Positions 10,972-28,640 of a stretch of DNA of 64,000 nucleotides are shown here, piece after piece. Origin of the DNA: an uncultured Clostridia bacterium (GTDB lineage Bacteria > Bacillota > DTU025 > MWDF01); contig CAZJHY010000001.1 of assembly GCA_964545975.1 (NCBI GenBank), forward strand, positions 24,094 to 88,093, given 5' to 3'. How positions within the stretch are numbered: the stretch's first letter is position 1; each line of letters opens with the position of its first letter. A program made the translations under genes and the position numbers. The notes beneath the pieces are model-generated. The model worked only from the letters and a program-made list of their open reading frames with translations, made no database searches and was not told the DNA's origin.

Positions 10972-11065
10972 GGGATAACCTCCTCGATGTTAACATGTTA
11001 GACGATTAAATTGTATCAAATACAAACGGCATGTCAACATCATCCAAGGGGCTCTCCTTGATTTT

Positions 11066-13162: not shown

Positions 13163-13180
13163 TCTCATAGAAGTCCTGCT

Positions 13181-13210
13181 ATGGAGCCCTGTCGCAAGAC
13201 GGGGCTCCAT
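13181..13210 (+). other. GC-rich intercistronic hairpin after SBP gene
   Basis: ATGGAGCCC (loop 12) GGGCTCCAT, 9 bp perfect stem. Confidence 0.5.
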
Positions 13211-13231
13211 GCACCCAAGGGGGCGTTATTT

Positions 13232-14752
13232 TTGGAGATAGTACCTATCCTCGAAGCGAGGAACATCAGCAAGGAGTTCCCGGGCGTAAAGGCGTTGGAT
13301 GAAGTATCCATACAGGTAAGGCCCGGCGAGGTCCATGTACTGATAGGAGAGAACGGGGCCGGAAAGAGCACGCTGTCCAAGATACTCATGGGAGTGTATA
13401 CCAGCGACAAGGGCGAGATCCTGTTCGATGGTAAGCCCGCCCACATTAGGAACCCTCATGACGCAAGGGCATTAGGCATATGCGGTGTCCATCAGGAGTT
13501 CATGCTTGTACCCTGGATGAACGTCGCACAGAACATCTTCATCAACAGAGAGCCCAGGATTTGGCCGGGGCTTCCCTTCATAGACCACAAGAAGATGCAC
13601 GAGGACAGCAGGAAGCTGCTTTCCTCCTTCAACGTGAACATCAACACCAAGCAGCCGGTGAAATACCTGGACACCGCGCTCCAGCAGATGGTGGAGATAG
13701 TAAAGGCGCTATCTACGAACCCCAAGGTCCTGATACTTGACGAACCGACTGCAGTCCTCACGGACAGGGAGGTCAACAGCCTCTTCGCCCATATAGAGGA
13801 GCTGAGAAGCCGAGGGGTTGCGATCATATACATATCGCACAGGCTTCCTGAGATCAGAAGGATAGGCGACAGGGTCACGGTCCTAAGAGACGGGAAGTAT
13901 GTAGCAACGGTTGACATCAAGGACACCCCCGACGAGGAGCTCATCAAGATGATGGTGGGCAGGAGCGTTTCGCAGCTTTATACCAGAAACCGCCAGGTTC
14001 CCGGGAAAGAGGCCCTGAGGCTTGAGAATTTCAGCGTGAAGGGCGGACCGCAGAATGTCGACCTGGTGCTGCACTACGGAGAGATCATTGGGCTTGCGGG
14101 CCTGATTGGTTCAGGGCGCACCGAGCTTGTCAGGGGCATCATGGGAATTGACCAGCAGACAGGCGGTTCCCTTTACATCGATGGCAACAAAGTCACGGTC
14201 GGAAGCCCTGACAAGGCGATAGGACTGGGGCTGGGGCTTCTGCCTGAGGACCGCAAGAGGTATGGCCTCGCCCTTAAGACGAACATCGCCTGGAATACCA
14301 TAATGGCGAGCCTCAAGCGGGAGTTCCCCAAGGGAGTAGTAAGGGAGCGCAAGGTGCGCGACATCGCCCAGGGCTATGTTAAGCAGCTGAAAATCGCCAC
14401 AGACTCGGTATCTAAGGTGGTGGGCTTCCTAAGCGGAGGCAACCAGCAGAAGGTTGTCGTCGCCAAGTGGATCAACACCAAGGCCAAGATCCTCATCTTC
14501 GACGAACCTACAAGGGGCATCGACGTGGGGGCCAAGGCAGAGGTGCACGCCCTCATGGACAAACTGGTGGCCGAAGGAAACGCGATCATAATGATTTCCT
14601 CCGACCTGCCGGAAGTCCTCGGGATGAGCGACCGCGTCTACACGATATTCCAGTGCCGTTCCATGGGGGACTGCTGCTTCCAGGAGGCGAACCAGCAGAG
14701 AATCGGCTCCCTTATGCTGGGAGTGGGGGTGAAGACAGATGCAAACCAGTAA
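13232..14752 (+). CDS. sugar ABC transporter ATP-binding protein with two NBDs (RbsA/MglA-like)
   Basis: two Walker A/signature sets (GENGAGKST; LSGGNQQK); TTG start at 13232 after AAGGGGG; the longer ORF from 13181 is rejected because it overlaps the hairpin. Confidence 0.8.
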   Translation: MEIVPILEARNISKEFPGVKALDEVSIQVRPGEVHVLIGENGAGKSTLSKILMGVYTSDKGEILFDGKPAHIRNPHDARALGICGVHQEFMLVPWMNVAQNIFINREPRIWPGLPFIDHKKMHEDSRKLLSSFNVNINTKQPVKYLDTALQQMVEIVKALSTNPKVLILDEPTAVLTDREVNSLFAHIEELRSRGVAIIYISHRLPEIRRIGDRVTVLRDGKYVATVDIKDTPDEELIKMMVGRSVSQLYTRNRQVPGKEALRLENFSVKGGPQNVDLVLHYGEIIGLAGLIGSGRTELVRGIMGIDQQTGGSLYIDGNKVTVGSPDKAIGLGLGLLPEDRKRYGLALKTNIAWNTIMASLKREFPKGVVRERKVRDIAQGYVKQLKIATDSVSKVVGFLSGGNQQKVVVAKWINTKAKILIFDEPTRGIDVGAKAEVHALMDKLVAEGNAIIMISSDLPEVLGMSDRVYTIFQCRSMGDCCFQEANQQRIGSLMLGVGVKTDANQ

Positions 14753-15704
14753 GCTCATGGGCTTTTTGAGGAAGGTCCCGCCGGCGACATACATCATACT
14801 GCTCATGATAGCCATATACGGCATCGCCGCGCCCGGCTTCTTCACCCTTGGAAACCTCGAGAACGTCGGAAACCAGGCGGCCCCCCTTCTCATCGTCGCC
14901 ATAGGTGTGACCATGGTCATCATGACGGAGGGTACAGACCTTTCGATCGGTTATGTGATGGGCATGGTCGGAGTCGTTGTATCGATTATGCTTAGGGCGA
15001 AAATCTGGATAGGCTGGGCGTTCCTTGCCGGCATCGCGGTAGGGGTGTTCTGCGGCTTCATAAACGGCGTCGCAGTCGCAAAGCTCAAGCTTCCTCCGTT
15101 CATTGCTACGCTTGGTACCGGAAACGTCATATTCGGAATAGGCCTCGTCATAACCGAAGGATACTCCATACAGGCACTTGATCCTGCGCTGCTTTTTCTG
15201 GCAAGCGGCAAGGTGTTCGGAATAAGCATGCCGATACTGATTGCCACGGTGGTCTTCGGGTTATGCTGGGTACTCATGAACTACACGCCGTTCGGGCGCA
15301 ACATAGTCTCTCTCGGAGGCAACTCCGAGGCGCTTAGAGGCGTTGGCCTTAACGTCGGGAAAGCCTCCATATCGGTATACATGATGTGTGGCTTCCTTGC
15401 GGCAATAGGAGGCCTCATAGTGGCGTCAAGGACAGGCTCAGGCTATTCGGCGGCTGCCATGGGATGGGAGTTCGACGCCATCGGAGCCAGTATAATCGGC
15501 GGTACATCCTTCGAGGAGGGCAATGGATCCATAAGCAGGACCGTAATTGGTGTCGCGCTCATATCGATACTCAGAAACGGCCTTAATGTCGTGGGCGTGC
15601 CGAACATGTACCAGTACGCGCTCATCGGCGCCATAGTGCTGACGGCCATAATCCTGGACGTTCGCTTCAGGCAGGCCGCGAAGGGAGGCGTCAAGAGAGT
15701 ATGA
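14739..15704 (+). CDS. sugar ABC transporter permease (RbsC family)
   Basis: multi-TM; overlaps ATPase stop. Confidence 0.8.
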   Translation: MQTSKLMGFLRKVPPATYIILLMIAIYGIAAPGFFTLGNLENVGNQAAPLLIVAIGVTMVIMTEGTDLSIGYVMGMVGVVVSIMLRAKIWIGWAFLAGIAVGVFCGFINGVAVAKLKLPPFIATLGTGNVIFGIGLVITEGYSIQALDPALLFLASGKVFGISMPILIATVVFGLCWVLMNYTPFGRNIVSLGGNSEALRGVGLNVGKASISVYMMCGFLAAIGGLIVASRTGSGYSAAAMGWEFDAIGASIIGGTSFEEGNGSISRTVIGVALISILRNGLNVVGVPNMYQYALIGAIVLTAIILDVRFRQAAKGGVKRV

Positions 15705-16696
15705 ACGAAGGTTCAAGGATGAAGGACACCCCCAAGGCGGTCGCAATCGTAAACGACAGGCTCAAGGCAAGGGAGGCCATAGCTCCCCTCTTCAGGCTCA
15801 CGTTCCTGATAGTCCTCATGATCGCACTTTCCATACTCAGCGAGGACTTCTTCACATGGAGCAACCTAATTAACGTTCTCAGGCAGTCGACTTTCCTGAT
15901 AGTAATCGGCCTCGGGCTCACAGGGGTGCTGCTTACCGGAGGCATCGACCTGTCCGTAGGCGGTGTGCTCGCATTCGTGGGCTGCGCGACTGGACAGATG
16001 ATGAGATCCGGCGTTCCGCTTTATCTTGCAGTGCCAATCGGTCTTCTAATCGGAGCGGGAGTCGGATGCTTCAACGGTTTCATGGTGGGGTACATCAAGC
16101 TTCCTCCGTTTGTGGCCACTTACGGTTCCAAGTGGATATCCGAGGGCATGGCGCTGCTTCTTATGCAGGGGCAGGTCATCTACGGCTTCCCGAGGGTGTA
16201 CCGCTGGATCGGCATCGGCTACATAGGACCCATACCAGTGCCCATCATAATTGCTGCCATCCTTGCGGTAATAATGAACTTCCTGTTCGTGAAGACCGTA
16301 TTCGGCAGGCAGGTATATGCACTGGGCGCCAACAAGGAAGCAGCATTCTACTCGGGCATCAAAGTCAAGAAGAACATCATGGTGGTATACACCCTTGCTG
16401 GCCTCATGGCGGGCATTGCCGGCCTTCTGATGCTTGCAAGGCTTGACGCCGCCGAGGTGAACATGGGAGAGGCCCTGCAGCTGCAGTCCCTCGCCGCGGT
16501 CATCATCGGGGGTGCATCCCTTCGCGGAGGCGAGGGCAGCATATTCGGCACGATAATTGGCGCCATAACCCTTACGCTGGTCGTAAACGGGCTTAACCTG
16601 CTTGGCGTGCGCTCTTTGTGGCACTCAGTGGTGCTCGGCGGCGTCATCCTGGCATCCGTGATAATGGACCTGCGCATGAAGAAGCTGGCGCAATAA
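15701..16696 (+). CDS. sugar ABC transporter permease (RbsC family, second copy)
   Basis: multi-TM paralog of preceding gene, ATGA overlap. Confidence 0.8.
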   Translation: MNEGSRMKDTPKAVAIVNDRLKAREAIAPLFRLTFLIVLMIALSILSEDFFTWSNLINVLRQSTFLIVIGLGLTGVLLTGGIDLSVGGVLAFVGCATGQMMRSGVPLYLAVPIGLLIGAGVGCFNGFMVGYIKLPPFVATYGSKWISEGMALLLMQGQVIYGFPRVYRWIGIGYIGPIPVPIIIAAILAVIMNFLFVKTVFGRQVYALGANKEAAFYSGIKVKKNIMVVYTLAGLMAGIAGLLMLARLDAAEVNMGEALQLQSLAAVIIGGASLRGGEGSIFGTIIGAITLTLVVNGLNLLGVRSLWHSVVLGGVILASVIMDLRMKKLAQ

Positions 16697-16727
16697 GGAT
16701 TAGCAGAAAGAAAAAGGAGGAACACCA

Positions 16728-17537
16728 ATGGCCAACCTTACGATCAGACCCATAAACACCGGTTACGCGGAAACCTACAAGAAGCAGTACCAGTACCATC
16801 ATTCTACCCACAAGTACCACAACGTCGACGACGGAAAGCTTCTTCTGCCCTGCATGGCATTCCTTATCGAGGGCGGAGACAAGCTCGTGCTGGTAGACAC
16901 CGGCATGTCCAACACCGAGATAGCCAACAAGTATCATCATCCGGGTTCGTACCAGCCTGACGGCTTTGCGATACATGAGCAGCTGGCGAAGCTGGGCATC
17001 AAGTGCGAGGACATCGACATTGTCATCTTCACGCACATGCACTGGGACCACATGCACAACATGGAGAAGTTCGTAAACGCCAGGTTCATCGCCCACAAGA
17101 AGGAATGGGAGTTCTGCCAGAACCCCATCCCGCTGTACTACAAATCATACGAGCATCCCAAGCTCGGCATAAAGGCTCCCTTCACTGGCCTTAAGATCGA
17201 GACCGTAGAGGGCGAGCAGGAGATAGTCCCCGGCATAAGGGTGTTCGAGAGCTTCGGGCATTCGCCGGGCCACATGTCCGTGGAAGTCGACTGCGAGGAC
17301 GGATCCTACATCCTCTGCGGCGATGCGGTATTCATCTACGACAACCTTAAGCCCGTGCCGGACATGTTCTATGAGATTACTCCCCCGGCCAGGTATGCCA
17401 ACATCGTCGAGTGCTGGAACAGCATAGTCGAGATGAAGCATAGGGCCAAGGAGCAGCGCTTCATACTGCCCTCCCATGAGCCTGAGATAGAGGAGCTCGC
17501 GAAGAAGTACGGAACTTTCCCGATACCCAAGAAGTAA
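16728..17537 (+). CDS. MBL-fold metallo-hydrolase (AiiA-like lactonase family)
   Basis: HxHxDH zinc motif in FTHMHWDHMHN; RBS AAAAGGAGG. Confidence 0.75.
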   Translation: MANLTIRPINTGYAETYKKQYQYHHSTHKYHNVDDGKLLLPCMAFLIEGGDKLVLVDTGMSNTEIANKYHHPGSYQPDGFAIHEQLAKLGIKCEDIDIVIFTHMHWDHMHNMEKFVNARFIAHKKEWEFCQNPIPLYYKSYEHPKLGIKAPFTGLKIETVEGEQEIVPGIRVFESFGHSPGHMSVEVDCEDGSYILCGDAVFIYDNLKPVPDMFYEITPPARYANIVECWNSIVEMKHRAKEQRFILPSHEPEIEELAKKYGTFPIPKK

Positions 17538-17619
17538 CATCACACCGATTGGGGGTGCGGCCGGGAGGCAGGTCCAAGGGGGCGCGGGCCTCCGAAGACA
17601 GCCAACCCGGCCTTGTCAT

Positions 17620-18843
17620 ATGAAGACTATCGCAGTGATAACCTCGCTGGACACGAAGGGGAAAGAGACCCTCTATATAAAGGATGCGATCGAGAGGTTC
17701 GGCTCGAAGGCTCTCATCATAGACGTAGGGGTCAAGGAGCCGCCATATTTCACGCCTGATATCGCAAGGCACGAGGTGGCCGCCGCCGCCGGCATCGACT
17801 GGGATACGGTGAAGGACAAGGAGAAAAGGGTGAGGATAAGCACCATGACCTCAGGCCTTGAGGTGCTTATACCCAAGCTATATGCCGAGGGGAAGCTTTC
17901 GGCCGTGTTCTCGATGGGAGGCCTTCAGAACACAACGATGGGAACATCGGCGATGAAGACCCTGCCGCTCGGGGTGCCTAAGCTCATGCTTTCCACGATG
18001 GCGTCCAGCAACAGGCCTTTCGGTCCGTTCGTGGGAACCAAGGACATGACCCTCATGCACTCGGTGGGCGACATCCTAGGGGTAAACCCCGTCACCAAGG
18101 CCGTGATGGATAACGCCGTCGGAGCCATCGTGGGGATGGCGGAGCACGCCGGAAACAGGGTGCAGAAAACTGACAGGATCCTTGTGGGTGCCACTATGCT
18201 CGGCGTAACGAACGACGGAGTGAGCCGCGCGGTATCCTACCTCGAGGAGGCAGGCTACGACGTGGTCACCTTCCATGCGAACGGTGCGGGAGGACCGGCC
18301 ATGGAGGAGCTCATAGGACAGGACACGATAGACGCCGCGATGGATCTTACGCTGCATGAGATAGACGCTGAATTCTTCGGGGGGCACTGTTCGGGGGCGA
18401 CCAACAGGCTCCTTATGGCCGCCGAGAAGGGGATACCCCAGGTTGTTTCGCTTGGTGCCTCCGACGTCATAGACTATGAGGTCGTGGACCTCGACAAGGT
18501 AAGGGAGTATGGAAGGCGCAAGTTCGTCTATCAGCACCCCACCATCCAGCACATAAAGCTCATAGAGGAAGAGGCGCACAAGGTCGGGACGGTAATCGGG
18601 GAGAGGCTCTCAAAGGCCAAGGGTCCCCTAACCCTCGTCATACCTAGGGGAGGCTTCCACCAGAGCAGCTACAAAGGCGGTCCCATATGGGATCCTGCCA
18701 TCGACGAGATAATCATAGGACACATACTAAGCAGGATTGCGCCTTCCACAAGGGTGGTAGAGACCGCAGCCCATATCAACGAGCCCGCCTTCAGCAGGGT
18801 GGCGGCCGATGAGATGATTAAGCTTCTGAAGGCCATGCGCTAA
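17620..18843 (+). CDS. UPF0261 (Tm-1-like N-terminal domain) family protein
   Basis: N-terminal MKTIAVITSLDTKGKE pattern and ~400 aa length typical of UPF0261; product by recollection of family only. Confidence 0.5.
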   Translation: MKTIAVITSLDTKGKETLYIKDAIERFGSKALIIDVGVKEPPYFTPDIARHEVAAAAGIDWDTVKDKEKRVRISTMTSGLEVLIPKLYAEGKLSAVFSMGGLQNTTMGTSAMKTLPLGVPKLMLSTMASSNRPFGPFVGTKDMTLMHSVGDILGVNPVTKAVMDNAVGAIVGMAEHAGNRVQKTDRILVGATMLGVTNDGVSRAVSYLEEAGYDVVTFHANGAGGPAMEELIGQDTIDAAMDLTLHEIDAEFFGGHCSGATNRLLMAAEKGIPQVVSLGASDVIDYEVVDLDKVREYGRRKFVYQHPTIQHIKLIEEEAHKVGTVIGERLSKAKGPLTLVIPRGGFHQSSYKGGPIWDPAIDEIIIGHILSRIAPSTRVVETAAHINEPAFSRVAADEMIKLLKAMR

Positions 18844-18875
18844 GCAGGGCCAGAAGCCTCACAAGGAGGATTCCG

Positions 18876-20132
18876 ATGTTCTACGGACTGCCTTTCGACA
18901 ACCCCGAGTCCATTTATGGCAGGGATTACGTTCTGGGCACCTATTTCGTGACCGGCGTCACAGGAGACGATGCGCTTAATAAGCTGGGCATGTTTGCAGT
19001 CGGCCAGTCCACCGGCACGTGGATGCCGGTGCCCGGCATAACCAGGCAGATGGTGGAGGATCATCAGGGAAGAGTCGTCGGATGCTATCCGGTGCCCGCC
19101 CAGGAGCCCGGCGCCTACGTTCTTAGGGTGGCGTTTCCCTACAGCAACATAGGCGGGTCCATCTCGATGCTGCTTACCACGCTTGCGGGAAACGACGCTT
19201 CGACTGCGCTGTGCGCGAAGCTCATAGACGTGGAGCTTGTCGGCAAGGCGAAGTCGGCCTTCCACGGTCCGCACTTCGGAATAGACGGGGTGAGGAAGCT
19301 CACGGGAGTCTACGACAGGCCCATAGTCATGAATATGATCAAGCCTTGCACGGGCTTTCCGGCTACGGCAGGGGCGGAGTTCTTCTACGCGTCCGGATCA
19401 GGCGGCGTAGACATAATAAAAGATGACGAGCTTATGGGCAACACCAGCTTCAATTCCGTCGCCGACAGGGTGAGGGAGTATGGTAAGGCTCAAGCGAGAA
19501 TCGGAGGAGAGAGGGGCAAGGCCCCTATATACCTTCCCAATGTGACCGACAGGCACGATAAAATGCGCGACAACATCAAGGCGGCGATAGACGGCGGAGC
19601 GAAGGGCGTCATGGTCAACTTCGTCTTCACCGGACTCGACAGCCTTGCCGCGCTTACATCGGAGTTCGGCGACAAGGTGATGTTCCTCGCTCATGCGGCA
19701 GGAGTTGGCGTCATGACCGGTTATCCGCAGGGCTTAAGCACCTCGCTTCTTCTAGGAAGGCTCGGAAGGCTGGCAGGCGCGGACGCGGTGGTCACCCTTT
19801 ATCCTCTCGGCATGGGAGGAGACGGCTTCCAGGAGCTTCAGATGACGGTGCAGAAGCACAGGCTGCCTCTGGGAGATGTCAAGCAAGCCTTGACCGTGGT
19901 CGGAGGAGGCGTCACGCCGCTTACCGTACCGTTTGCGGTGAAGAGCTTCGGCAAGGACATAATCATCGCCGTTGGCGGTGGCATCCAGGGCCACCCGGAC
20001 GGGGCGACGGCAGGCGCAAAGGCCATGATGGCTGCGGTGGATGCGACCATGAAGGGCGTAAGCCTGGAAGACGCGGTTAAGGACAGCCCGGAGCTCGGAA
20101 GGGCGATAACCAGATGGGGCAAGAAGGCTTAA
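18876..20132 (+). CDS. RuBisCO-like protein (form IV RuBisCO large-subunit homolog)
   Basis: GGVDIIKDDE aligns with RuBisCO GGLDFTKDDE (carbamylated Lys and Mg ligands retained); IKP (K175 equivalent) present; no small subunit or PRK nearby; RBS AAGGAGGA. Confidence 0.8.
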   Translation: MFYGLPFDNPESIYGRDYVLGTYFVTGVTGDDALNKLGMFAVGQSTGTWMPVPGITRQMVEDHQGRVVGCYPVPAQEPGAYVLRVAFPYSNIGGSISMLLTTLAGNDASTALCAKLIDVELVGKAKSAFHGPHFGIDGVRKLTGVYDRPIVMNMIKPCTGFPATAGAEFFYASGSGGVDIIKDDELMGNTSFNSVADRVREYGKAQARIGGERGKAPIYLPNVTDRHDKMRDNIKAAIDGGAKGVMVNFVFTGLDSLAALTSEFGDKVMFLAHAAGVGVMTGYPQGLSTSLLLGRLGRLAGADAVVTLYPLGMGGDGFQELQMTVQKHRLPLGDVKQALTVVGGGVTPLTVPFAVKSFGKDIIIAVGGGIQGHPDGATAGAKAMMAAVDATMKGVSLEDAVKDSPELGRAITRWGKKA

Positions 20133-20169
20133 GGGCCGCCCGAATGATGACCGTATGGAGGTAAAGCAG

Positions 20170-20793
20170 ATGGAAGATCTTATCATGAGCATAAAAAGGG
20201 ACGTGGAGCTCGCCTGCAGGAGGGCGTACACGAGGGGAATACAGACCGGAAGCGGCGGAAACGTCAGCGCAAGGATACCGGGCACGGACCATATGATAGT
20301 GAAGCCAAGCAAGGTGTCGCTCATCGAATGCGACCCCGAGACGCTTATCATAACCGACTTCGACGGAAACTTGGTGCAGGGCTCTCTTCCTCCTACGAGG
20401 GAGGCGGTGCTTCACGGCTGGCTGTATAAGAAGTTCGGCAAGATCGGAGCGGTGGTTCACACCCATTCGCCCTGGGCTATATCCTGGTCCTTCACCAGGA
20501 GGGACCTTCCCAATATTACCATGCATACTCAGCTTAAGCTGGGATGCCCCATCCCGGTCAGGTTCTTCTCCAGCCCCAAGGGGGTTCTGAAGGAGGAGAT
20601 GCCAGAAGTCTACGGCCTTTTCGAGAAGGAACCGAACCTCGCCGCCTTCATACTCGGTGCGCACGGTGTGGTCGCAGTCGGCGACAATATCATAGAGGCC
20701 GAGCACACGGCGGAGCTCATAGAGGAGACGGCACAGATAGCATACCTGCACGAGATGGGATTGAAGCTCGGGATGTTCCCCGAGGGCAGATAA
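20170..20793 (+). CDS. class II aldolase/adducin family protein
   Basis: GIQTGSGGNVSAR, HTHSPWAI motifs; start at ATG 20170 after GGAGGT. Confidence 0.8.
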   Translation: MEDLIMSIKRDVELACRRAYTRGIQTGSGGNVSARIPGTDHMIVKPSKVSLIECDPETLIITDFDGNLVQGSLPPTREAVLHGWLYKKFGKIGAVVHTHSPWAISWSFTRRDLPNITMHTQLKLGCPIPVRFFSSPKGVLKEEMPEVYGLFEKEPNLAAFILGAHGVVAVGDNIIEAEHTAELIEETAQIAYLHEMGLKLGMFPEGR

Positions 20794-20822
20794 GACGAAG
20801 ACAATCCGAACGGAGTGATCAT

Positions 20823-21284
20823 ATGTACAGGAAGATGGTAATAGGCTGCGACGAGGCGGCCTGTGAGCTGAAAAACGCCCTTATCGAGGTCCTTAAGAAG
20901 AAGGGAATTGAGTATGAGGACGTCGGAGTGCCGGATGCAAGCGACAAGACCTATTATCCCCTGGTGGCAGAGAAGGTGGCCGAGGCGATAATAGAAAGCG
21001 GCTATGAGAAGCACGGGATGCTCCTCTGCGGAACGGGCATCGGCATGGCCATATCCGCGAACAAGCACCCCGGGGTATTTGCCGCTGTATGCCACGACCA
21101 GTATTCTACCGAGAGGGCGAAGCTGAGCAACAACTGCAACGTCATCTGCATGGGGGCAAGGGTCATAGGGCCAGAGCTTGCCAAGAAGAACCTGGAGCAA
21201 TGGCTTGAGCTGACGTTCAAGGACGGCTCCTCGACCCCTAAGGTGGAGGCTGTGAAGGATATCGAGAAGAGGCATATGAAATGA
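20823..21284 (+). CDS. RpiB/LacA/LacB family sugar-phosphate isomerase (ribose-5-P isomerase B-like; possible tetrose-P isomerase)
   Basis: MVIGCDEAA...LLCGTGIGMAISANK with catalytic Cys-region; ~153 aa. Confidence 0.8.
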   Translation: MYRKMVIGCDEAACELKNALIEVLKKKGIEYEDVGVPDASDKTYYPLVAEKVAEAIIESGYEKHGMLLCGTGIGMAISANKHPGVFAAVCHDQYSTERAKLSNNCNVICMGARVIGPELAKKNLEQWLELTFKDGSSTPKVEAVKDIEKRHMK

Positions 21285-22075
21285 GGAGCCCGCTTCTTGT
21301 CGGCACGAACCTCAAGATGTACAAGGGCGTGAAGGAGACGCTGGAGTTCCTTTCGCGCCTTGCGGGAAACGTCAGCCACATAGGCAGCGAAGACATGACG
21401 CTCTTCGTCATACCCTCCTACCTTGCCCTTCATGCGGCATGCGGGTCTGATGCGCACAGCAGGATACTCCTTGGCGCGCAGAATCTGCACTGGGAGGACT
21501 CCGGGCAGTTCACCGGTGAGATATCCCCCATGATGCTCAAGGAGATAGGCATAGATATCGCTGAGATCGGCCACTCGGAACGAAGGCAGCTTTTCGGTGA
21601 GACGGACGTGACAGTGGGGCTTAAGGCCAAGGCAGCGCTCAGGCACGGCATGAGGGCCCTGGTATGCATAGGGGAGACCGCAGACGACAAGGCGTCGGGC
21701 ATTACCTATGAGAAGCTGAGGATGCAGGTGAAGGTGGCCTTAAAGGGGATTTCTGCGGATGAGCTCGAGGGGCTTTGGGTAGCATACGAGCCGGTATGGG
21801 CCATCGGGATCCACGGGGTCCCGGCTGAGCCCGGATACGCCGAGAAGAGCCACAGGATGATAAAAGACGTGCTGGAAGAGCTTTACCCTAATAAGGGCGC
21901 AGGCGTTCCCGTGCTGTACGGCGGAAGCGTCAACATGGAAAACGCCATGGAGCTCATCGTCCAGCCGAGCATAGACGGCTTGTTCATAGGAAGGACCGCT
22001 TGGGACGCGGACAGGTTCGCGTCGCTGATCAAGGATGTCCTCCCCTTGTGGAAGGCCAAGGCTGAGAGAGAATAG
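21281..22075 (+). CDS. triose-phosphate isomerase family protein (TpiA-like, divergent N-terminus)
   Basis: GHSERR, AYEPVWAIG (catalytic Glu), YGGSV; N-terminal GTNLKMYKG instead of canonical GNWKMNK. Confidence 0.8.
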   Translation: MRSPLLVGTNLKMYKGVKETLEFLSRLAGNVSHIGSEDMTLFVIPSYLALHAACGSDAHSRILLGAQNLHWEDSGQFTGEISPMMLKEIGIDIAEIGHSERRQLFGETDVTVGLKAKAALRHGMRALVCIGETADDKASGITYEKLRMQVKVALKGISADELEGLWVAYEPVWAIGIHGVPAEPGYAEKSHRMIKDVLEELYPNKGAGVPVLYGGSVNMENAMELIVQPSIDGLFIGRTAWDADRFASLIKDVLPLWKAKAERE

Positions 22076-22104
22076 GGCAAGGCTTACGAAGGCGGTGTGA
22101 TGCA

Positions 22105-22776
22105 ATGGCGGACATGGTCATGGAGGCGAAAAGGCAGTTAATAGAGATCGGAAGGCAGATAGCTGCCAAGGGACTTGTGATAGGACCCGGCGGAAATACC
22201 AGCTTAAGGGCAGGCGCCCTCATGGTGATATCCGCCAGCGGCTCTTCATTCGAGTGCTCCGACGAGAGCGACTACGTCGCGATAGACATAGAGACAGGAA
22301 AACAGGCCGACGGCGGCAAGAGGCCGTCTTCCGAAGTGCTGATGCACCTTGAGTGCTACAGGAGGCGCCCGGATGTAAACGCTGTAGTCCATACCCATCC
22401 GACGTGGTCGACATCTGTAGCAAGCTCGGGCACCAAGATGCCCCCGATGTTCCCGGATTACGTCGTGTTCGTGGGCAAGCCCGCGACCCTGGATTACGTG
22501 ATACCGACGACGAAGCTTCTGGCCGATGCCGTGGCCGAAGTCATAGGGGAGCATAATGTGGTGCTCATGAGCAATCACGGGGTGCTTGCCGTCGCAGGCG
22601 ACCTCAAGATGGCGCTATTAAGGGTGGAGCTGGCAGAGGAGAACGCAAGGATGCTCGTGATAGCAAACTCCCTCGGCAAGCCGCGATCCCTTACGGATGC
22701 CGAAGTCCAGGCGATATTTGACCTGGAGAGCGAGAAGTACAGGCAGAGGCTTCTGAAAAACGAGGGCGGGAAGTAG
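22105..22776 (+). CDS. class II aldolase/adducin family protein
   Basis: GLVIGPGGNTSLR, HTHPTWS motifs. Confidence 0.8.
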   Translation: MADMVMEAKRQLIEIGRQIAAKGLVIGPGGNTSLRAGALMVISASGSSFECSDESDYVAIDIETGKQADGGKRPSSEVLMHLECYRRRPDVNAVVHTHPTWSTSVASSGTKMPPMFPDYVVFVGKPATLDYVIPTTKLLADAVAEVIGEHNVVLMSNHGVLAVAGDLKMALLRVELAEENARMLVIANSLGKPRSLTDAEVQAIFDLESEKYRQRLLKNEGGK

Positions 22777-22798
22777 TCCTAAAAAGGAGGACGCACCA

Positions 22799-24271
22799 TT
22801 GTCCGACAGGCTTTTCATGGGGATAGACGTGGGCACGGGCGGAGCCAGGGTCATAGTCTGCGACGAGTACGGGTTGCCCCTGGCGGAAAGCTCGAGGCCG
22901 TTTGCCGCAGGTGCCGGCGCATCTGACATGCCCCAGGGCTGGCATCAGCAGTCGCCCGCAGCCTGGTGGGACGCGACTTCCGCATGTATAAGGCAGGTCA
23001 TGGGCTCACCCGGACTCGGCGGAAATCCTGGCAGGGTGTTCTCTGTTTCCGTCACATCCACATCAGGTACTGTGATCCCGCTTAGGGAGGATTGCGAACC
23101 GCTCTGGGATGCGGTCATGTACAACGACAGCAGGTCGTCCGCGCAGGCGGAAAGGGCGAACGAGGCGCTTAAGGAATTATGCGGGAAGCTCGCCTACAGG
23201 TTCGACACATCCTTCGGGCTTCCGAAGATGCTATGGTTCATGGACAGCAAGCCTGAGCTGTTCAGAAGGACCAGATTCTTCGTCCACGCTGGCGATTATA
23301 TTATCGGGAAGCTCTGCGGCTGCTTCGGTTTCACCGACTATTCCAACTCGCTGAAGTCTGGATACGACATCGATGAGCTGATATGGCCGAAGGAGATAGA
23401 GGAGAAACTGGGCGTCCCGGCGTCCAAACTGCCGGAAGTGCTCGCCCCGGGCACGGTAGTCGGGAAGGTCTGCGCCGCCTGCTCCGCAGAGACGGGCCTT
23501 CCGGAAAGCACCAACGTCGCGCTGGGCATGACGGACGGCTGCGCCTCGCAGATTGCATCGGGTGCCGCGTCCTTAGGCGACTGGAACACCACGATCGGCA
23601 CAACGCTTGTAATCAAGGGGGTCACCGAGAGGCTCCTCTTCGACCCGAAGGGAAGGATATACAGCCACAGGCATCCCGACGGGCACTGGATGCCAGGCGG
23701 GGCCAGCAACGTCGGCGGCGACTGCATAAGAAGCAACTTCCGCGACGATGAGCTGGATACGCTGAACGCGTCCGTGCGCCCTGAGAAGCCGACAGGCATG
23801 CTGGTGTACCCTCTGGAGAAGAAGGGCGAGAGGTTCCCGAACAGAGATCCTTTGGCAGAGGGGTTCATAATGGGAAGCCCATCAGGAAGGCCCGAGCTCT
23901 ATCAGGCCTACCTTGAGGGTGTTGCGCTGGTGGAGAAGATGTCATACGAGATGCTTCAGAGCTTGGGGGCGGCAATCGGTGACACGATCTTTGCGGCGGG
24001 AGGCGCCACGAAAAGCGAGCCATGGCTCAAGGTAAGGTCGAATATGCTCGACCGGCGCATTGCAGTCCCGGAGATTGCAGGAGGATTCATGGGAGCCGCC
24101 ATACTAGCAGCTTCCCTCTCCCATTGGGGCTCGCTCGGTGAGGCTGCCAAAAACATGGTAAAAATTTCCAAGACGATATGCCCGGACCCTGCCGCTGTCG
24201 ATGCCTATAAGGATAAGTACGGGCAGTTCATAAGAGAGATGGGAAGCAGGGGATATACCCTGGAGGGATGA
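22799..24271 (+). CDS. FGGY family carbohydrate kinase (xylulo-/ribulo-/erythritol-kinase-like)
   Basis: N-terminal GIDVGTGGARV, ~490 aa two-domain ASKHA kinase; TTG start after AAAGGAGG. Confidence 0.8.
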   Translation: MSDRLFMGIDVGTGGARVIVCDEYGLPLAESSRPFAAGAGASDMPQGWHQQSPAAWWDATSACIRQVMGSPGLGGNPGRVFSVSVTSTSGTVIPLREDCEPLWDAVMYNDSRSSAQAERANEALKELCGKLAYRFDTSFGLPKMLWFMDSKPELFRRTRFFVHAGDYIIGKLCGCFGFTDYSNSLKSGYDIDELIWPKEIEEKLGVPASKLPEVLAPGTVVGKVCAACSAETGLPESTNVALGMTDGCASQIASGAASLGDWNTTIGTTLVIKGVTERLLFDPKGRIYSHRHPDGHWMPGGASNVGGDCIRSNFRDDELDTLNASVRPEKPTGMLVYPLEKKGERFPNRDPLAEGFIMGSPSGRPELYQAYLEGVALVEKMSYEMLQSLGAAIGDTIFAAGGATKSEPWLKVRSNMLDRRIAVPEIAGGFMGAAILAASLSHWGSLGEAAKNMVKISKTICPDPAAVDAYKDKYGQFIREMGSRGYTLEG

Positions 24272-24275
24272 TGAT

Positions 24276-25673
24276 ATGAGCATTTACAAGGCCTGCGACA
24301 TAAGGGGAGTCTACCCTTCGTCGCTCGACGAGAAGACGTCATACGATATAGGAGCGGCTTTGGGGGAGATGCTCGGCCCTGTAAGCATGCTCGTCGCAGG
24401 CGACGTGAGGGTCAGCACGCCGCCTTTGAAGCAAAGCCTTATAAACGGCCTTGTGGACGCCGGATGCGAAGTAGTGGACATCGGCATGGCCCCGACCCCG
24501 GCCTTCTACTACGCGCTTCATAAGCTGGGCACCGAGTCGGGCGTGACGGTGACGGCATCCCATAATCCGGCCAAGTACAACGGCTTCAAGATAGCGCCGC
24601 ACGGGCAGCCCATGACTGAAGACGTGATGGACGACCTGAGGAAGATGGTCGAAGCTGGAGGATTCAAGCCATATGGGCAAGGGAGCGTAAGGAAGGCTGA
24701 GGTCATCGAGGATTACAAGAGATTCGTGCTTGATAAGATAGGAGAGCTAACGGGAACGAAGTGCAGCGCTCATGGTTCGAGTAATGCCCTCAAAGCCGTG
24801 GTGGACTGCGGCAACGGCTGCTACAGCACGATAGCCCCTGAAGTTCTAAGGCAAGCTGGCATCGCGGTTGAGGAGCTCTATTGCTGGGAGGATGGAACTT
24901 TCCCTAACAGGGAGCCAAACCCAGCTGTAGCTGAGAATCTCGAGGCTTTATGCGGCAAGGTCAGAGATACGGGGGCAGACCTTGGCATTGCCTTCGACGG
25001 GGACGGTGACAGGGTGGTCTTCGTGGACGAGCTGGGCAAAGTGGTCCCTAGCGACAATGCGATAGCACTTTTCGCCGGCTTCCTCCTTAAGAATCACCCC
25101 GGCTCGAAGGTGGTTTTCGACATCAAGTGCTCAAGCCTTGTGTCGGATTCGATCAAGGCGGCGGGCGGCATTCCAGTGATGGAGAAGTCAGGCCACGCTT
25201 ACATCAAGAACAACCTGCTGAGAAACGGCGCGGTTTTCGCAGGCGAGATCAGCGGGCACTTCTTCTTCCAGGTGCTCAAGGGGGATGACGGGCTGTTCGC
25301 GGCTCTTCTGATGGCCGAGATCATGATGTCGGAGGGCAGAAGCCTGGGGAAGATGGTGGAGTCGCAGCCGAAGTACTTCACTACAAGAGACTTCAGGATA
25401 CCGTTCTCGGGGAGCACGGCCGAGCTGTTCGGAAGGCTCAAAGCGCGCCTTGAGGCAAGCGGAGGCGCAAACCTGTCGTACCTGGACGGCATAAGGGCGG
25501 AGTTTTCTGAAGGCTGGGGGCTTATAAGGGCATCAGTCACTGAGCCACTGGTTACGCTGAGGTTCGAGGGGAAGTCGTTGGAGAGCCTTGATAGGATAAG
25601 GGATAGCTTCCTTGCTGCAGATGAGGACTTGCTTGATGCCGTAAGGGAGGTTTGGGCAAACCATCTTCCTTAG
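24276..25673 (+). CDS. phosphohexomutase (phosphomannomutase/phosphoglucomutase family)
   Basis: active-site TASHNPAKYNGFK phosphoserine loop. Confidence 0.85.
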   Translation: MSIYKACDIRGVYPSSLDEKTSYDIGAALGEMLGPVSMLVAGDVRVSTPPLKQSLINGLVDAGCEVVDIGMAPTPAFYYALHKLGTESGVTVTASHNPAKYNGFKIAPHGQPMTEDVMDDLRKMVEAGGFKPYGQGSVRKAEVIEDYKRFVLDKIGELTGTKCSAHGSSNALKAVVDCGNGCYSTIAPEVLRQAGIAVEELYCWEDGTFPNREPNPAVAENLEALCGKVRDTGADLGIAFDGDGDRVVFVDELGKVVPSDNAIALFAGFLLKNHPGSKVVFDIKCSSLVSDSIKAAGGIPVMEKSGHAYIKNNLLRNGAVFAGEISGHFFFQVLKGDDGLFAALLMAEIMMSEGRSLGKMVESQPKYFTTRDFRIPFSGSTAELFGRLKARLEASGGANLSYLDGIRAEFSEGWGLIRASVTEPLVTLRFEGKSLESLDRIRDSFLAADEDLLDAVREVWANHLP

Positions 25674-25685: not shown

Positions 25686-26372
25686 CTACTTCTCGGTGAA
25701 CTCCCTCATATAGCACTCGTATTTGCTGCAGTTCACCTGTATTCTCCTGTTTACGCTCCGGATGAATCCTTCGTTGGCAAGCTCGTTCATTAGCTTGCTT
25801 ACGGTCACCCTTGCAGCTCCTACGATGACTCCCAGCTCATAGTGCGTGTATCTCACCTTGAGCTCATACCAGCCGGGGTCGGCCTCGGCTTCCCTGTCGA
25901 CAGAGGAGCAGAGAAGCCTTGCTATCCTGTCCTTGCATGAGTTGAAGGTCAGGTTTTCAATCTCGAACCTGGTAATCAGGAGCTTCGTCGCCAGGCAACG
26001 GATGAATGCGTCCCTGAAGACAGCGCTGCTGTCCAGAAGCTGCCTCACCTTGTCCGGCGGTATCTTGCAAAGGACGACATCGGTCTCGGCTTGGGAGTAA
26101 AGTCCGGTCTTCCTTCCCAGGTAGAAGCCCATCTCACCGAAGAGCCAGCCCGGAGTGAGAGCATAGAGGACCTTTTCAAGCCCGTCCTCGTTCGCCATGA
26201 AATGCTTGGTCCTGCCCGACTTGATGTACAAGACGCCGCCGAAATCGCTCCCGGGCACAGAGAAGAGCGTCTTGGCAGGATAGGTAACCCTAATCGAGTT
26301 CTGCTCGATTATCTTCTCCAGTGCCTCGTTGTATGCATCGGGCATTAAGAGCCCCGTCTCCTCAAGGCGCAA
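25686..26372 (-). CDS. Crp/Fnr family transcriptional regulator
   Basis: cNMP-binding beta-roll then C-terminal HTH (HYELGVIVGAARVTVSKLMNELANEGFI). Confidence 0.8.
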   Translation of the reverse strand: MRLEETGLLMPDAYNEALEKIIEQNSIRVTYPAKTLFSVPGSDFGGVLYIKSGRTKHFMANEDGLEKVLYALTPGWLFGEMGFYLGRKTGLYSQAETDVVLCKIPPDKVRQLLDSSAVFRDAFIRCLATKLLITRFEIENLTFNSCKDRIARLLCSSVDREAEADPGWYELKVRYTHYELGVIVGAARVTVSKLMNELANEGFIRSVNRRIQVNCSKYECYMREFTEK

Positions 26373-26598: not shown

Positions 26599-27513
26599 TT
26601 GATAAAACCTACCGGCTCATGGGTGGCGATGCCGACCCCTTTCAATCAGGATGAAACCATCGACTTCGGTGGATTCAAGACGCTCATCGACAGGCAGATA
26701 GAGTACGGGACCTCTTTATTGTTCGTGCTCGGATCGTGCGGAGAGACCACGCTTCTTACGATTGATGAGAAGAAGCAGATAGTCAAGCAGGTCGTAGCGA
26801 TGACCAAGGGGCGCATTCCGGTGTTCTTCAACGCATCCGCCCCCACTACGGCCCAGAGCGTAGAGTTTGCCAAGTTCTGCGAGGCGGAGCACGCCGACGG
26901 TGTGATATTCACCGTGCCGCCATATGTGCTCATACCGCAGAATGCGGTATATGAGCACCTCAACACGTGCATGTCAGCGACCGGCCTTCCCTGCGGAATC
27001 TACAACAACCCTTCCAGGGTGGGCGTGCACATCGAACCTGAGACGATAGCGAAGCTTTCGGCCAACAATCCCAACTTCATAGTGGACAAGGAAGCCATGC
27101 CCAGCGTAAAGCAGCTTGTGGAAGTCAAGCGCAAGTGCGGCGACAACATCAACATACTCTGCTGCGACTTCCCTAACTACTCCATAGTGCTTCCAACACT
27201 AGCAATAGGTGGAAACGGAACCGCGAACATAGGAGGAAACGTCATACCTGAGGAGATGGCCGCAATCTCCAGGCCGTGGGACAGCATCGAGAAGATGTTT
27301 GAGGCGCGCGAGCTGTACTTCAAGTATTTCCCCGTCCTTCAGGGCCTGTATATGTTCTCGAACCCCATCGTGGTCAAGGCGGCCATGAAGATGCTCGGCC
27401 TTCCCGGCGGGCCGCTCAGGAAGCCCTACCTAGAGCTCTCAGGGCAGAAGTACGACGAGTTCGAGGCGCTCCTCAAGGAAATGGGCATAGTCGAGAAATA
27501 TGGCGTCAAGTAA
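26599..27513 (+). CDS. DapA/NAL family pyruvate-dependent class I aldolase (second paralog)
   Basis: GSCGE and lysine motif FIVDKEAMP; TTG start after AAGGAGGG. Confidence 0.75.
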   Translation: MIKPTGSWVAMPTPFNQDETIDFGGFKTLIDRQIEYGTSLLFVLGSCGETTLLTIDEKKQIVKQVVAMTKGRIPVFFNASAPTTAQSVEFAKFCEAEHADGVIFTVPPYVLIPQNAVYEHLNTCMSATGLPCGIYNNPSRVGVHIEPETIAKLSANNPNFIVDKEAMPSVKQLVEVKRKCGDNINILCCDFPNYSIVLPTLAIGGNGTANIGGNVIPEEMAAISRPWDSIEKMFEARELYFKYFPVLQGLYMFSNPIVVKAAMKMLGLPGGPLRKPYLELSGQKYDEFEALLKEMGIVEKYGVK

Positions 27514-27602
27514 GCTCGAAAGACCTGATCGAATAGAATTGGCAAGTTGCTTCGAAGCATAGTGGGAAGCAGATAAAAAGAAACGAAGGAGGAAGACCTG
27601 TC

Positions 27603-28577
27603 ATGAAGAAGACTTCCATGCGCCTGATGCTGGCAGCAGCCCTCGTGATCTCGATCATGTTCTCGTCCGTGGCAGCCGCACCTAAGTTCCTTACCATATC
27701 CACCGGCCCTGTGGGCGGGGAATGGTACATACTTGGCGGAATACTCTCCGAGCTCCTGAAACCGGTGCTTCCTGACACCAAGGTAACCGCAACAACCGGC
27801 GGCGGCGTCGCAAACCTCAGCACAGTGGCCTCCGGCAAGAGCGACATAGGCACCACGCAGGATCAGCTCCTGTATGATGCCCGCAATGGCACGACTGACT
27901 TCACCTCAGGAAAGCTCACCAACGTCGTCGCCATCGGATACCTGGCAGACATCTACATGAGCGTATTCCTCGTGCGCGAGGACTACAACATAACATCTCT
28001 TGATGACCTTGCAGCCAGGAAGATCGGCATGCGCATACTAACCGCCCCCACGGGCTCGACGCCTTCAAGGGCCGCGGTCAGGATGCTTGAGGAATACGGA
28101 GTGACCCCCGATCTCCTTAAGTCATGGGGGGGAAGCTTGAGCTACGTCGCCTATGCGGACGCAAGCTCGATGATCAGGGACGGCCATGCCGACGCCTATG
28201 TGGGCCCCATCATGCCCGCCATCATAGAGCTCACCGTCTCCCGCAAGATGAAGATGCTGCCGGTGAAAGAGACCGTCCTTAAGGCCATGACTGCCAAGTA
28301 CGCATATGGCAGGGCCACAATACCCGCTGGAGCATATGACTTCGTGAAGGCCAACACGCCCGTCATGACCGAGTCGCCCGTCCTCATCGTCAGGGATGAC
28401 GTCGACGAGCAGACCGTATACCTCATAACCAAGGCGATAGCCGAGAACCCTGCGAAGATCCAGGGCGCCGGCGCGACCTATGCAAAGTTCGACCCCAAGA
28501 TGATGCCCAACATATCGGGCGGTCCCATACATCCCGGAGCCCTCAGGTACTATAAGGAGAAGGGCTGGGTCAAGTAG
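27603..28577 (+). CDS. TAXI family TRAP transporter solute-binding protein
   Basis: signal peptide; TAXI-type SBP pattern (ISTGPVGGEWYILGG). Confidence 0.8.
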   Translation: MKKTSMRLMLAAALVISIMFSSVAAAPKFLTISTGPVGGEWYILGGILSELLKPVLPDTKVTATTGGGVANLSTVASGKSDIGTTQDQLLYDARNGTTDFTSGKLTNVVAIGYLADIYMSVFLVREDYNITSLDDLAARKIGMRILTAPTGSTPSRAAVRMLEEYGVTPDLLKSWGGSLSYVAYADASSMIRDGHADAYVGPIMPAIIELTVSRKMKMLPVKETVLKAMTAKYAYGRATIPAGAYDFVKANTPVMTESPVLIVRDDVDEQTVYLITKAIAENPAKIQGAGATYAKFDPKMMPNISGGPIHPGALRYYKEKGWVK

Positions 28578-28594
28578 GCTTCCTTAAAGCAGCA

Positions 28595-28617
28595 GAGGGG
28601 CCGGAAACCGGCCCCTC
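28595..28617 (+). other. GC-rich intercistronic hairpin after SBP gene
   Basis: GAGGGGCCGG AAA CCGGCCCCTC, 10-bp perfect stem, no U-tail. Confidence 0.55.
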
Positions 28618-28640
28618 CAAGACTTATGGGGGTATATGCC

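Follow-up and report, generated by a model that had tools for sequence, protein, structure and literature searches.

The question raised by this locus is whether two adjacent genes of families usually annotated as ribose-5-phosphate isomerase B and triose-phosphate isomerase (TPI) serve central metabolism or a dedicated catabolic route. The genes lie at positions 20823-22075 of a 64,000-nt stretch of contig CAZJHY010000001.1 from an uncultured Clostridia bacterium; the whole of this stretch is the DNA that was analysed, and is referred to here as the window. The first gene encodes an RpiB-like protein and the second a protein of the triose-phosphate isomerase (TIM) family. An earlier interpretation of the same DNA, made without database searches (the sequence-only reading), had described the two as adjacent and translationally coupled, and its coordinates are exact: the TGA stop of the RpiB gene and the ATG start of the TIM gene share an ATGA, a 4-nt overlap, and a purine-rich GAGAAGAGG precedes the start of the TIM-like gene. 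An in-frame open reading frame (ORF) that would begin the RpiB-like gene at 20544 was rejected because orthologues begin at the equivalent of 20823; the longer frame runs into the upstream aldolase-family gene, and the extended ORF 20544-21284 (+ strand) is considered a base-composition artefact rather than a gene.

The two proteins are probably specialised isomerases that together convert an erythrulose phosphate to erythrose 4-phosphate. The sequence-only reading had argued for such a tetrose-type pair over housekeeping enzymes, and this is supported by the best structural match of the TIM-like protein, its motifs and phylogeny, the EryI-like residues of the RpiB-like protein, and the linkage of the two families across genomes. 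The reference enzymes are LerI, which converts L-erythrulose 1-phosphate to D-erythrulose 4-phosphate, and DerI, which converts the latter to D-erythrose 4-phosphate (PMC10733421). By analogy, the TIM-like enzyme would shift the carbonyl by one carbon, from L-erythrulose 1-phosphate to D-erythrulose 4-phosphate, a step equivalent to TIM chemistry on dihydroxyacetone phosphate (DHAP) bearing an extra CH2OH; the RpiB-like protein would act as a DerI/EryI-type ketose/aldose isomerase, forming D-erythrose 4-phosphate from D-erythrulose 4-phosphate. The pair would form the last, isomerising module of an operon for the breakdown of a sugar or sugar acid. The LerI and DerI steps are assigned on the basis of family, residue signatures and synteny, from which the substrates are inferred.

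The catalytic motifs GHSERR and EPVWAIG and the N-terminal GTNLKMYKG that had been read from the DNA are all present in the translation of the TIM-like protein, as VGTNLKMYKG (residues 7-16), GHSERR (97-102) and YEPVWAIG (169-176). Lys12, His98 and Glu170, the catalytic residues of TIM, are invariant in the family alignment. The N-terminus had been called non-canonical; the segment is less aberrant than supposed, as the Asn and Lys of N-W-K-M are retained (N-L-K-M) and the change is from Gly to Thr just ahead of them. In a phmmer comparison the best of 182 PDB relatives is the L-erythrulose-1-phosphate isomerase 11ef (202.5 bits, E 8e-59), whereas the best TPI scores 179.3 bits; according to the fold search, 11ef is a structure from Brucella melitensis with a release date of March 2026. 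The protein was aligned with 80+ relatives, LerI/EryH, the TIMs of the R. etli and R. anhuiense apiose clusters, and five canonical TIMs (E. coli, Thermotoga, Geobacillus, 7n8u and 7rgc). Three signatures are common to all LerI-type proteins, including the one in the window, and missing from the five canonical references: G[TS]x[LFW]KM at the N-terminus, where canonical TIMs have (A/G)GNWKM; IGxxGxPA in loop 6, with a one-residue insertion relative to the canonical IGTGKxAT; and DGLFxGR[SAT]AW in loop 8, in place of DGxLVGGASL. A canonical TpiA would be expected to display (A/G)GNWKM, IGTGKxAT and GGASL within a gap-pgk-tpiA neighbourhood; neither these motifs nor that neighbourhood was found.

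A phylogeny with EryH, which the sequence-only reading had suggested as a check, was built for the TIM-like protein by neighbour-joining on Kimura distances (256 columns, 200 bootstraps, the five canonical TIMs as the only outgroups); it groups the protein with LerI/EryH and splits this assembly from canonical TpiA in 188/200 bootstraps. Identity is 45% to Brucella LerI and 47.5-49% to the apiose-cluster TIMs, whereas the TPIs of E. coli, Geobacillus and Thermotoga reach 33-39%. The EryH reference comes from R. leguminosarum plasmid pRltTA1D (eryA-B-C-D-R-tpiB-rpiB), a locus which holds a transporter, a kinase, a glycerol-3-phosphate dehydrogenase-like protein, a TIM-barrel protein, two regulators, the TIM and RpiB; this EryH is 83% identical to 11ef. 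An exact-sequence look-up of the TIM-like protein gave no identical record; the closest genome match to the window protein is found in an uncultured Clostridia metagenome-assembled genome (MAG; 92%, on a 2.5-kb contig). Automatic annotation names its homologues triose-phosphate isomerase, and JGI annotates one homologue of 56% identity as L-erythrulose 1-phosphate isomerase. Classification of the TIM-like protein as LerI/EryH-type, closer to the characterised LerI/EryH enzymes than to canonical TpiA, is thus supported by sequence comparison. As a separate observation, 7rgc (the TIM of Candidatus Absconditabacteria) is intermediate; it displays the N-terminus GANFKMYK, as in the window clade, with canonical loops 6 and 8, and joins the LerI-type side in 191/200 bootstraps.

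The RpiB-like protein scores 162 bits against the RpiB subfamily model of NCBIfam and misses the rpiB equivalog TIGR01120 (126.1 against a cut-off of 138.65); PDB scores are non-discriminating for this protein. Residues were compared at thirteen positions of E. coli RpiB: D9, H10, R40, Y43, C66, T68, E89, P90, H99, N100, R133, H134 and R137. At these positions the RpiB-like protein has D E K Y C T D Q S N S S K and R. leguminosarum EryI has D S D Y C T D T S N R S N, whereas canonical RpiBs from the same loci read DH(R/S)YCT(E/D)PHNRHR; genes of the canonical type coexist with the RpiB-like type in loci L077 and L086. The window protein therefore keeps D9, Y43, C66, T68 and N100, including the catalytic Asp, Cys and Thr, while H10, E89, H99, H134 and R137 are replaced by E, D, S, S and K (S, D, S, S and N in EryI); R133 is replaced by Ser, and the canonical RpiB residue set is absent. 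Structural work on RpiB gives H99 a part in opening the furanose ring and has R133, H134 and R137 holding the phosphate of the five-carbon substrate. The losses would be chemically sensible, because a tetrose 4-phosphate, with one carbon fewer, is unable to form a ring. The residue pattern supports an EryI-type protein rather than a ribose-5-phosphate isomerase B.

The linkage of the two families extends well beyond the window. A genome scan, taking one genome per species, yielded 80 loci with relatives of the TIM-like protein; 41 of the 80 have an RpiB-family gene no more than 1.5 kb from the TIM, and 48 have one no more than 6 kb away. The whole operon that contains the pair (Table 1) is also present in metagenome contigs L002 (94% TIM identity) and L001 (71%) and in the Firmicutes MAG L011, and its core occurs in about 14 further genomes, with Clostridia, Christensenella and Acidobacteriota among the taxa; a cultured carrier of the cluster is Muricomes intestini DSM 29489 (L088). 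By context, 14 of the 80 loci combine a RuBisCO-like protein (RLP) with a UPF0261 protein and a metallo-beta-lactamase-fold (MBL) hydrolase (Bacillota, Christensenella, Acidobacteriota), six have UPF0261 and MBL without the RLP (Blautia, Faecalibacterium, Ruminococcus), and four have the RLP only; 26 carry a PdxA-like protein with a DUF1537 kinase, eight a DhaKL-type kinase, and in 22, some of them on short contigs, nothing was recognised. Clustering of all ORFs in the loci revealed one further conserved family, a GntR/FCD regulator, and no conserved oxidoreductase family. Two paralogues of the LerI-like TIM are found in each of two MAGs (L029/L056 and L064/L083). In Pasteurella multocida a 51%-identical TIM accompanies DhaKL, an EryC-like TIM barrel, RpiB, transaldolase and transketolase. 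The P. multocida record NZ_CP113523.1 encodes a LerI-type TIM of 349 aa (L008:8001-9050) with a C-terminal extension of ~90 residues; the record is labelled a plasmid, yet carries rpoD, dnaG, tal and tkt and looks like a chromosome fragment.

The sequence-only reading had likened the pair to the tetrose-phosphate isomerases of erythritol catabolism, a comparison that the sequences support for the enzymes and that fails for the pathway. EryH and EryI of Brucella and Rhizobium belong to the same two families, are encoded by adjacent genes in one operon, and share the diagnostic changes of the window pair (TIM loops 6 and 8 and the N-terminal GT; loss of H10, H99, H134 and R137 in RpiB); however, identity is only 43-45% for the TIM and 44% for the RpiB, and the gene order is RpiB then TIM in the window and TIM then RpiB in ery. 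The ery pathway comprises five steps (PMC5468441). As the window holds no equivalents of the EryA kinase, the EryB dehydrogenase (DAO/GlpD-type) or the EryC epimerase, erythritol catabolism was rejected for this operon. A locus which does resemble an erythritol cluster is L094:213-13577 (ERZ11425702 NODE_70), with a SorC regulator, a DUF2291-ABC transporter, a Dak kinase, TIM, RpiB, an EryD-like gene, an FGGY kinase 32% identical to EryA and a GlpD-like dehydrogenase 32% identical to EryB; it contains an RLP and no EryC-type epimerase. From this single locus, such an RLP may substitute for EryC as an erythrulose-1-phosphate 3-epimerase.

Rhizobial plasmids (R. etli p42f, R. anhuiense) carry a TIM of 47-49% identity beside an OiaX RLP, a DUF1537 four-carbon acid sugar kinase and RpiB, together with a ribose-type ATP-binding cassette (ABC) transporter and a Gfo/Idh/MocA oxidoreductase; we take this to be the D-apiose catabolic cluster of Carter et al. 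2018. The apiose work of Carter et al. 2018 is cited in PMC6302742. The window operon echoes the architecture of the RLP branch of D-apiose catabolism (R. etli CFN42 p42f: OiaX/OiaC, the DUF1537 kinase OiaK, LerI and DerI), sharing a ribose-type ABC importer, an ATP-dependent kinase (putative in the window), an RLP, and TIM-family and RpiB-family isomerases, and the apiose-cluster TIM has the same LerI-type motifs as its window counterpart. The kinases differ, being UPF0261 in the window and DUF1537 in the apiose cluster, and the RLPs come from different clades; the window operon additionally holds an MBL hydrolase and a class II aldolase-family protein, and unlike the apiose pathway lacks an apiose dehydrogenase (Gfo/Idh/MocA), a PdxA-type oxidoisomerase or any other oxidoreductase. 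The match to oxidative D-apiose catabolism is thus limited to the LerI/DerI end and the transporter type. The tetritol pathways of M. smegmatis, as outlined in a paper that cites them, comprise the kinases LerK and DerK with LerI and DerI (Huang et al. 2015, as cited in PMC10733421). There LerI and DerI likewise convert erythrulose phosphates to erythrose 4-phosphate, and some relatives of the window TIM adjoin Dak-type kinases; set against that outline, a comparison of pathway descriptions rather than of sequences, neither a polyol dehydrogenase nor a kinase of the Dak type is encoded in the window operon.

Several observations weigh against an erythrulose phosphate-specific role. The window TIM clade (176/200) branches as a sister group beside the characterised alphaproteobacterial LerI/EryH enzymes (200/200) and not from within them, is just 43-47% identical to them, and has Asn after GT (GTNLKM) where LerI/EryH have Ser (GTSWKM); for this Firmicutes-type clade, LerI activity is a prediction from sequence. 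Retention of the canonical Asn makes full TPI activity plausible, and the EryH orthologue TpiB of S. meliloti has TPI activity. The window TIM-like protein marginally passes the NCBIfam TPI equivalog NF000722 (295.8 against a cut-off of 293) and scores 151.4 against the 130.6 of the TPI model TIGR00419, two models which do not separate LerI from TPI; NCBIfam has no LerI model. The RpiB-like protein does not reach the DerI equivalog NF051858 (154.3 against 240), a model built on Rhizobiales, so that the miss argues against orthology with rhizobial DerI and not against the activity. With no LerI model available, the TPI equivalog marginally passed and the DerI model missed, NCBIfam names alone are misleading. 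An AlphaFold model of the TIM-like protein (pLDDT, the predicted local distance difference test, 93.7) forms a TIM barrel that matches all TIMs in the PDB with template-modelling (TM) scores of 0.84-0.91 and ranks Brucella LerI 2-4; the fold therefore does not discriminate LerI from TPI. Class II aldolase-family enzymes usually release DHAP, and the operon holds two to three genes of this family; the modules found with PdxA-like and DUF1537 or with DhaKL-type kinases could simply produce DHAP.

These points are drawn together most closely by the proposal that the TIM-like protein is a genuine TPI dedicated to the pathway, converting to glyceraldehyde 3-phosphate the DHAP released by upstream aldolases or OtnC-like decarboxylases, with the RpiB-like protein acting on a phosphate other than a tetrose. 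Though the strongest of the alternatives, it is considered unlikely. None of the catalytic residues of TPI (Asn, Lys, His and Glu) is lost, the TPI equivalog is passed, three class II aldolase-family genes occur in the operon and its flank, and relatives adjoin known DHAP-yielding modules (PdxA with DUF1537 kinase, or DhaKL); however, the changes in loops 6 and 8 are shared with the structurally defined LerI and missing from the five canonical TIMs, and the handling of DHAP alone would not obviously call for an extra TPI whose phosphate-gripper loop has been remodelled. A dedicated TPI also sits poorly with the persistent linkage to a non-canonical RpiB whose residue changes match those of EryI, and with the transaldolase and transketolase of the P. 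multocida cluster.

Rather less likely still is the same chemistry on a longer chain, in which the pair would act on C5 or C6 ketose phosphates made by an RLP pathway. The divergence from characterised LerI and the Asn/Ser difference would suit such a role, as would a substrate-binding protein nearest to ribose-binding proteins, and the add-on FGGY kinase, mutase of the phosphomannomutase (PMM) type and FucA-like aldolase suggest pentose or hexose phosphates. The active-site motifs are nevertheless near-invariant in very different contexts, including the erythritol-like L094 and the Dak-kinase loci, which argues for one common substrate, and the RpiB changes remove the residues which serve the longer ribose 5-phosphate. 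That these are ordinary housekeeping tpiA and rpiB genes which lie in a sugar operon by chance is highly improbable: automatic annotation does give the name triose-phosphate isomerase and no second TIM homologue was found in the whole 64-kb window, but the pair is translationally coupled in a transporter-led catabolic operon with no glycolytic neighbours, the TIM motifs are LerI-type, the RpiB falls below the rpiB equivalog and has lost H10, H99, H134 and R137, a canonical-type RpiB coexists with the RpiB-like type in L077 and L086, and some MAGs have two LerI-like TIMs.

The erythrulose phosphate assignment is next placed in the context of the operon, in which 13 genes on the + strand form one tight unit (12152-25673) with intergenic gaps of -14 to +82 nt (Table 1). 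The sequence-only reading had called this operon non-glycolytic, which agrees with the absence of glycolytic genes among the annotated families of the operon and most of its neighbours; Pfam annotation of the operon genes likewise revealed no oxidoreductase. A 438-nt intergenic region separates the operon from the divergent aldolase-family gene, and the Crp/Fnr regulator has the same position in contig L002 (94% identical). A scan for promoters and terminators gave counts that match chance expectation.

Table 1. Genes of the isomerase operon and its immediate flanks (window positions).
Feature	Coordinates	Strand	Evidence
Third class II aldolase-family gene, divergent; operon membership uncertain	11066-11713	-	Pfam Aldolase_II E 6e-48
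ABC substrate-binding protein, ribose-binding type; operon gene 1	12152-13162	+	Pfam Peripla_BP_4 E 4.6e-59
ABC transporter ATPase, two ATP-binding domains	13181-14752	+	Translation; Pfam ABC_tran x2 in L093 orthologue
ABC transporter permease 1	14739-15704	+	Translation; BPD_transp_2 in orthologues
ABC transporter permease 2	15701-16696	+	Translation; BPD_transp_2 in orthologues
Lactonase-like MBL hydrolase	16728-17537	+	Pfam Lactamase_B E 3e-24
UPF0261 (Tm-1-like) protein, putative ATP-dependent kinase	17620-18843	+	Pfam UPF0261 + UPF0261_C
RLP (form IV), uncharacterised clade	18876-20132	+	Pfam RuBisCO_large E 2.5e-39
Class II aldolase/adducin-family protein Ald1	20155-20793	+	Pfam Aldolase_II E 9e-37
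RpiB-family isomerase, DerI/EryI-like, putative D-erythrulose-4-phosphate isomerase, 153 aa	20823-21284	+	Pfam LacAB_rpiB PF02502 E 6e-47
TIM-family isomerase, LerI/EryH-like, putative L-erythrulose-1-phosphate isomerase, 264 aa	21281-22075	+	PF00121 E 1.5e-72
Class II aldolase-family protein Ald2 (add-on)	22105-22776	+	Pfam Aldolase_II E 1.7e-42
FGGY-family sugar kinase (add-on)	22799-24271	+	Pfam FGGY_N/FGGY_C
Phosphohexomutase-superfamily mutase, PMM/phosphoglucomutase (PGM) type (add-on, last gene of the operon)	24276-25673	+	Pfam PGM_PMM I-IV
Candidate regulator of the Crp/Fnr family, convergent with the operon	25686-26372	-	Pfam cNMP_binding + HTH_Crp_2

The substrate-binding protein has ribose-binding proteins as its best PDB relatives (2ioy, 168 bits; the R. 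etli substrate-binding proteins 5ibq and 4ry0 score 116 bits), and in other genomes the corresponding cluster likewise begins with an orthologue (50-88% identity); the ABC ATPase is conserved in 17 related loci. The MBL hydrolase is kept in the core cluster of the relatives, and in both NCBIfam and the PDB it comes closest to lactonases (4-pyridoxolactonase, AiiA), without reaching any of the family cut-offs. The best PDB matches of the UPF0261 protein are 9mpy, a UPF0261 domain protein (153 bits), and tomato Tm-1. The first catalytic activity for this family, that of an ATP-dependent kinase, was reported in 2025; in MarK the E16K change raises kinase activity ~1600-fold, and Lys20 of Tm-1, at the same position, contacts ATP (PMC12624787). 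The window protein has a native Lys aligned with the MarK E16K position, in an N-terminal DTK motif, and this residue together with the activity reported for the family suggests that it is a kinase.

The RLP retains the KDDE metal/carbamate motif and is about 29% identical to the OiaX-type RLP; its scores fall below the cut-offs of the MtnW models of NCBIfam (265.8 against 409 and 220 against 513.6) and of OiaX (128 against 700). A role in methionine salvage (MtnW) was rejected, given these scores and the absence of mtnK, mtnA, mtnX and mtnD nearby. Homologues number 964 proteins at E <= 1e-30, with names that are generic or, by transfer, 'DK-MTP-1-P enolase'. A role as EryC substitute was also considered for the window RLP; in the RLP tree the protein falls in a 200/200 clade tied to MBL, UPF0261 and class II aldolase-family genes, one member of which, in L098, has no TIM or RpiB nearby. 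The sister clade (197/200) comprises RLPs found with RpiB and TIM and without MBL or UPF0261, among them those of L024, L064 and the erythritol-like L094. Ald1 is the aldolase-family gene of the core, with orthologues of 50-62% identity in all core clusters; its H-x-H motif aligns with the metal-binding histidines of fuculose-phosphate aldolase, and its leading NCBIfam matches, both below cut-off, are the L-ribulose-5-P 4-epimerase subfamily (117 bits) followed by the 3-oxo-tetronate-4-P decarboxylase OtnC (85). The Ula and Otn family models of NCBIfam were not reached.

The remaining three operon genes, Ald2, the FGGY kinase and the mutase, are restricted to the closest relatives, Ald2 orthologues being confined to L001, L002, L010 and L011. 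The top NCBIfam match of Ald2 is L-fuculose-phosphate aldolase (130 bits, cut-off 264) and that of the FGGY kinase is xylulokinase (194 bits, cut-off 380), the latter being only 21% identical to R. leguminosarum EryA; the translation of the mutase displays TASHNP and DGDGDR motifs.

Upstream of the isomerases, a ribose-like sugar, sugar-acid or lactone would be imported by the ABC transporter, opened by the lactonase-like MBL enzyme and phosphorylated by the UPF0261 protein; the RLP and Ald1 would then turn the phosphorylated compound into erythrulose phosphate, a conversion that probably costs one carbon and would involve no net redox change. These steps are inferred by analogy with OiaK/OiaC and with OtnK/OtnC and UlaG/UlaD, the template being the rhizobial apiose route of kinase, RLP decarboxylase, LerI and DerI. 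The E. coli Ula (anaerobic L-ascorbate) and OtnK/OtnC tetronate routes are redox-neutral: an MBL-fold lactonase (UlaG) or a kinase yields a 3-keto acid in phosphorylated form, which a decarboxylase strips of CO2, and the closing steps to xylulose 5-phosphate or DHAP fall to enzymes of the class II aldolase family. Unlike the window operon these routes do not end in a TIM/RpiB pair, and the analogy is one of logic only. The lack of an oxidoreductase, taken with the carboxylate-type GntR/FCD regulators, suggests a substrate already at the oxidation level of a keto-acid or lactone; apiose-derived or ascorbate/erythroascorbate-type compounds are candidates only. It is tentatively proposed, as a possibility held with less than even confidence, that the operon encodes an undescribed redox-neutral route in which an MBL enzyme, a UPF0261 kinase, an RLP of a new functional class and an OtnC-like enzyme would lead to erythrulose phosphate, and the LerI/DerI-type pair from there to erythrose 4-phosphate. 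No published description of the cluster was found in literature pairing an RLP with UPF0261 or with erythrulose phosphate.

Variants of the cluster occur in which one or other block is missing. L098:5952-13098 holds a GntR/FCD regulator, MBL, UPF0261, RLP, a class II aldolase-family gene, a CitMHS carboxylate transporter and a second aldolase-family gene, with no TIM or RpiB; the MBL-UPF0261-RLP-aldolase block can therefore work without the isomerase pair. In L096:2528-10275 and L097:261-8188 the order is MBL, UPF0261, URO-D-like, UPF0261, URO-D-like, RLP, again without TIM or RpiB, and the RLP is 45% identical to that of the window. Conversely, L024:8257-13208 and L064:9548-15189 have RLP, RpiB and TIM without MBL or UPF0261, beside a Gat/Ula-type EIIC of the phosphotransferase system (PTS) with small EIIA/EIIB-sized ORFs; L064 additionally holds a split transketolase, ribulose-phosphate 3-epimerase and a Zn-dehydrogenase. 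An RLP-less gut variant (L016, L045, L060, L062, L076 and L083, at ~9500-15700 in each; Faecalibacterium, Blautia, Ruminococcus, Lachnospiraceae) comprises RpiB, TIM, a KdgT-type transporter, MBL, UPF0261, an Ald1-like gene and a GntR/FCD regulator. In sequence, the RpiB of this variant represents a third type (GCDPNA..., with SD replacing HD).

Elsewhere in the window, a class II aldolase/adducin-family gene at 34967-35758 (+) lies beside a major facilitator superfamily (MFS) transporter, making four such genes within 25 kb, and the divergent aldolase-family gene upstream of the operon neighbours glutathione peroxidase and MarR genes. The region 26599-30506 encodes a protein of the dihydrodipicolinate synthase (DHDPS) family (DapA/NanA-like), a TAXI-type binding protein (NMT1_3) of a tripartite ATP-independent periplasmic (TRAP) transporter and a putative membrane protein (a 626-aa ORF); another DHDPS-family gene lies at 8972-9868. 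A row of genes at 40483-43924 encodes a D-2-hydroxyacid dehydrogenase, a LarA-family (lactate racemase-like) protein and an HMGL-like/homocitrate-synthase-like protein, followed by a branched-chain-type ABC binding protein. The long ORF 12194-13210 (-), antisense to the substrate-binding protein gene, is spurious, a base-composition artefact.

The pair is most likely a Firmicutes-type addition to the known LerI and DerI enzymes, as judged from its sequence signatures, and the operon is a new version of the kinase, RLP, LerI, DerI design, with another kinase family, another RLP clade, additional MBL and aldolase-family proteins, and no redox step. The pair flags a conserved cluster of transporter, MBL, UPF0261, RLP, class II aldolase-family protein and GntR/FCD regulator; with erythrose 4-phosphate as the probable end product, fewer substrates and fewer RLP reactions need to be considered, and the existence of a cultured carrier, Muricomes intestini DSM 29489, makes the cluster testable. 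If the proposed route is true, it would provide the first carbohydrate or acid-sugar substrate for the UPF0261 family; an RLP that replaces EryC as a 3-epimerase, as suggested for L094, would represent a new RLP reaction. Thousands of such proteins are automatically named triose-phosphate isomerase or ribose-5-phosphate isomerase B, and the motif sets described here separate the tetrose-type from the housekeeping enzymes; their use would put right the reconstructed metabolism of Lachnospiraceae from the gut, of Christensenella and of Acidobacteriota from soil.

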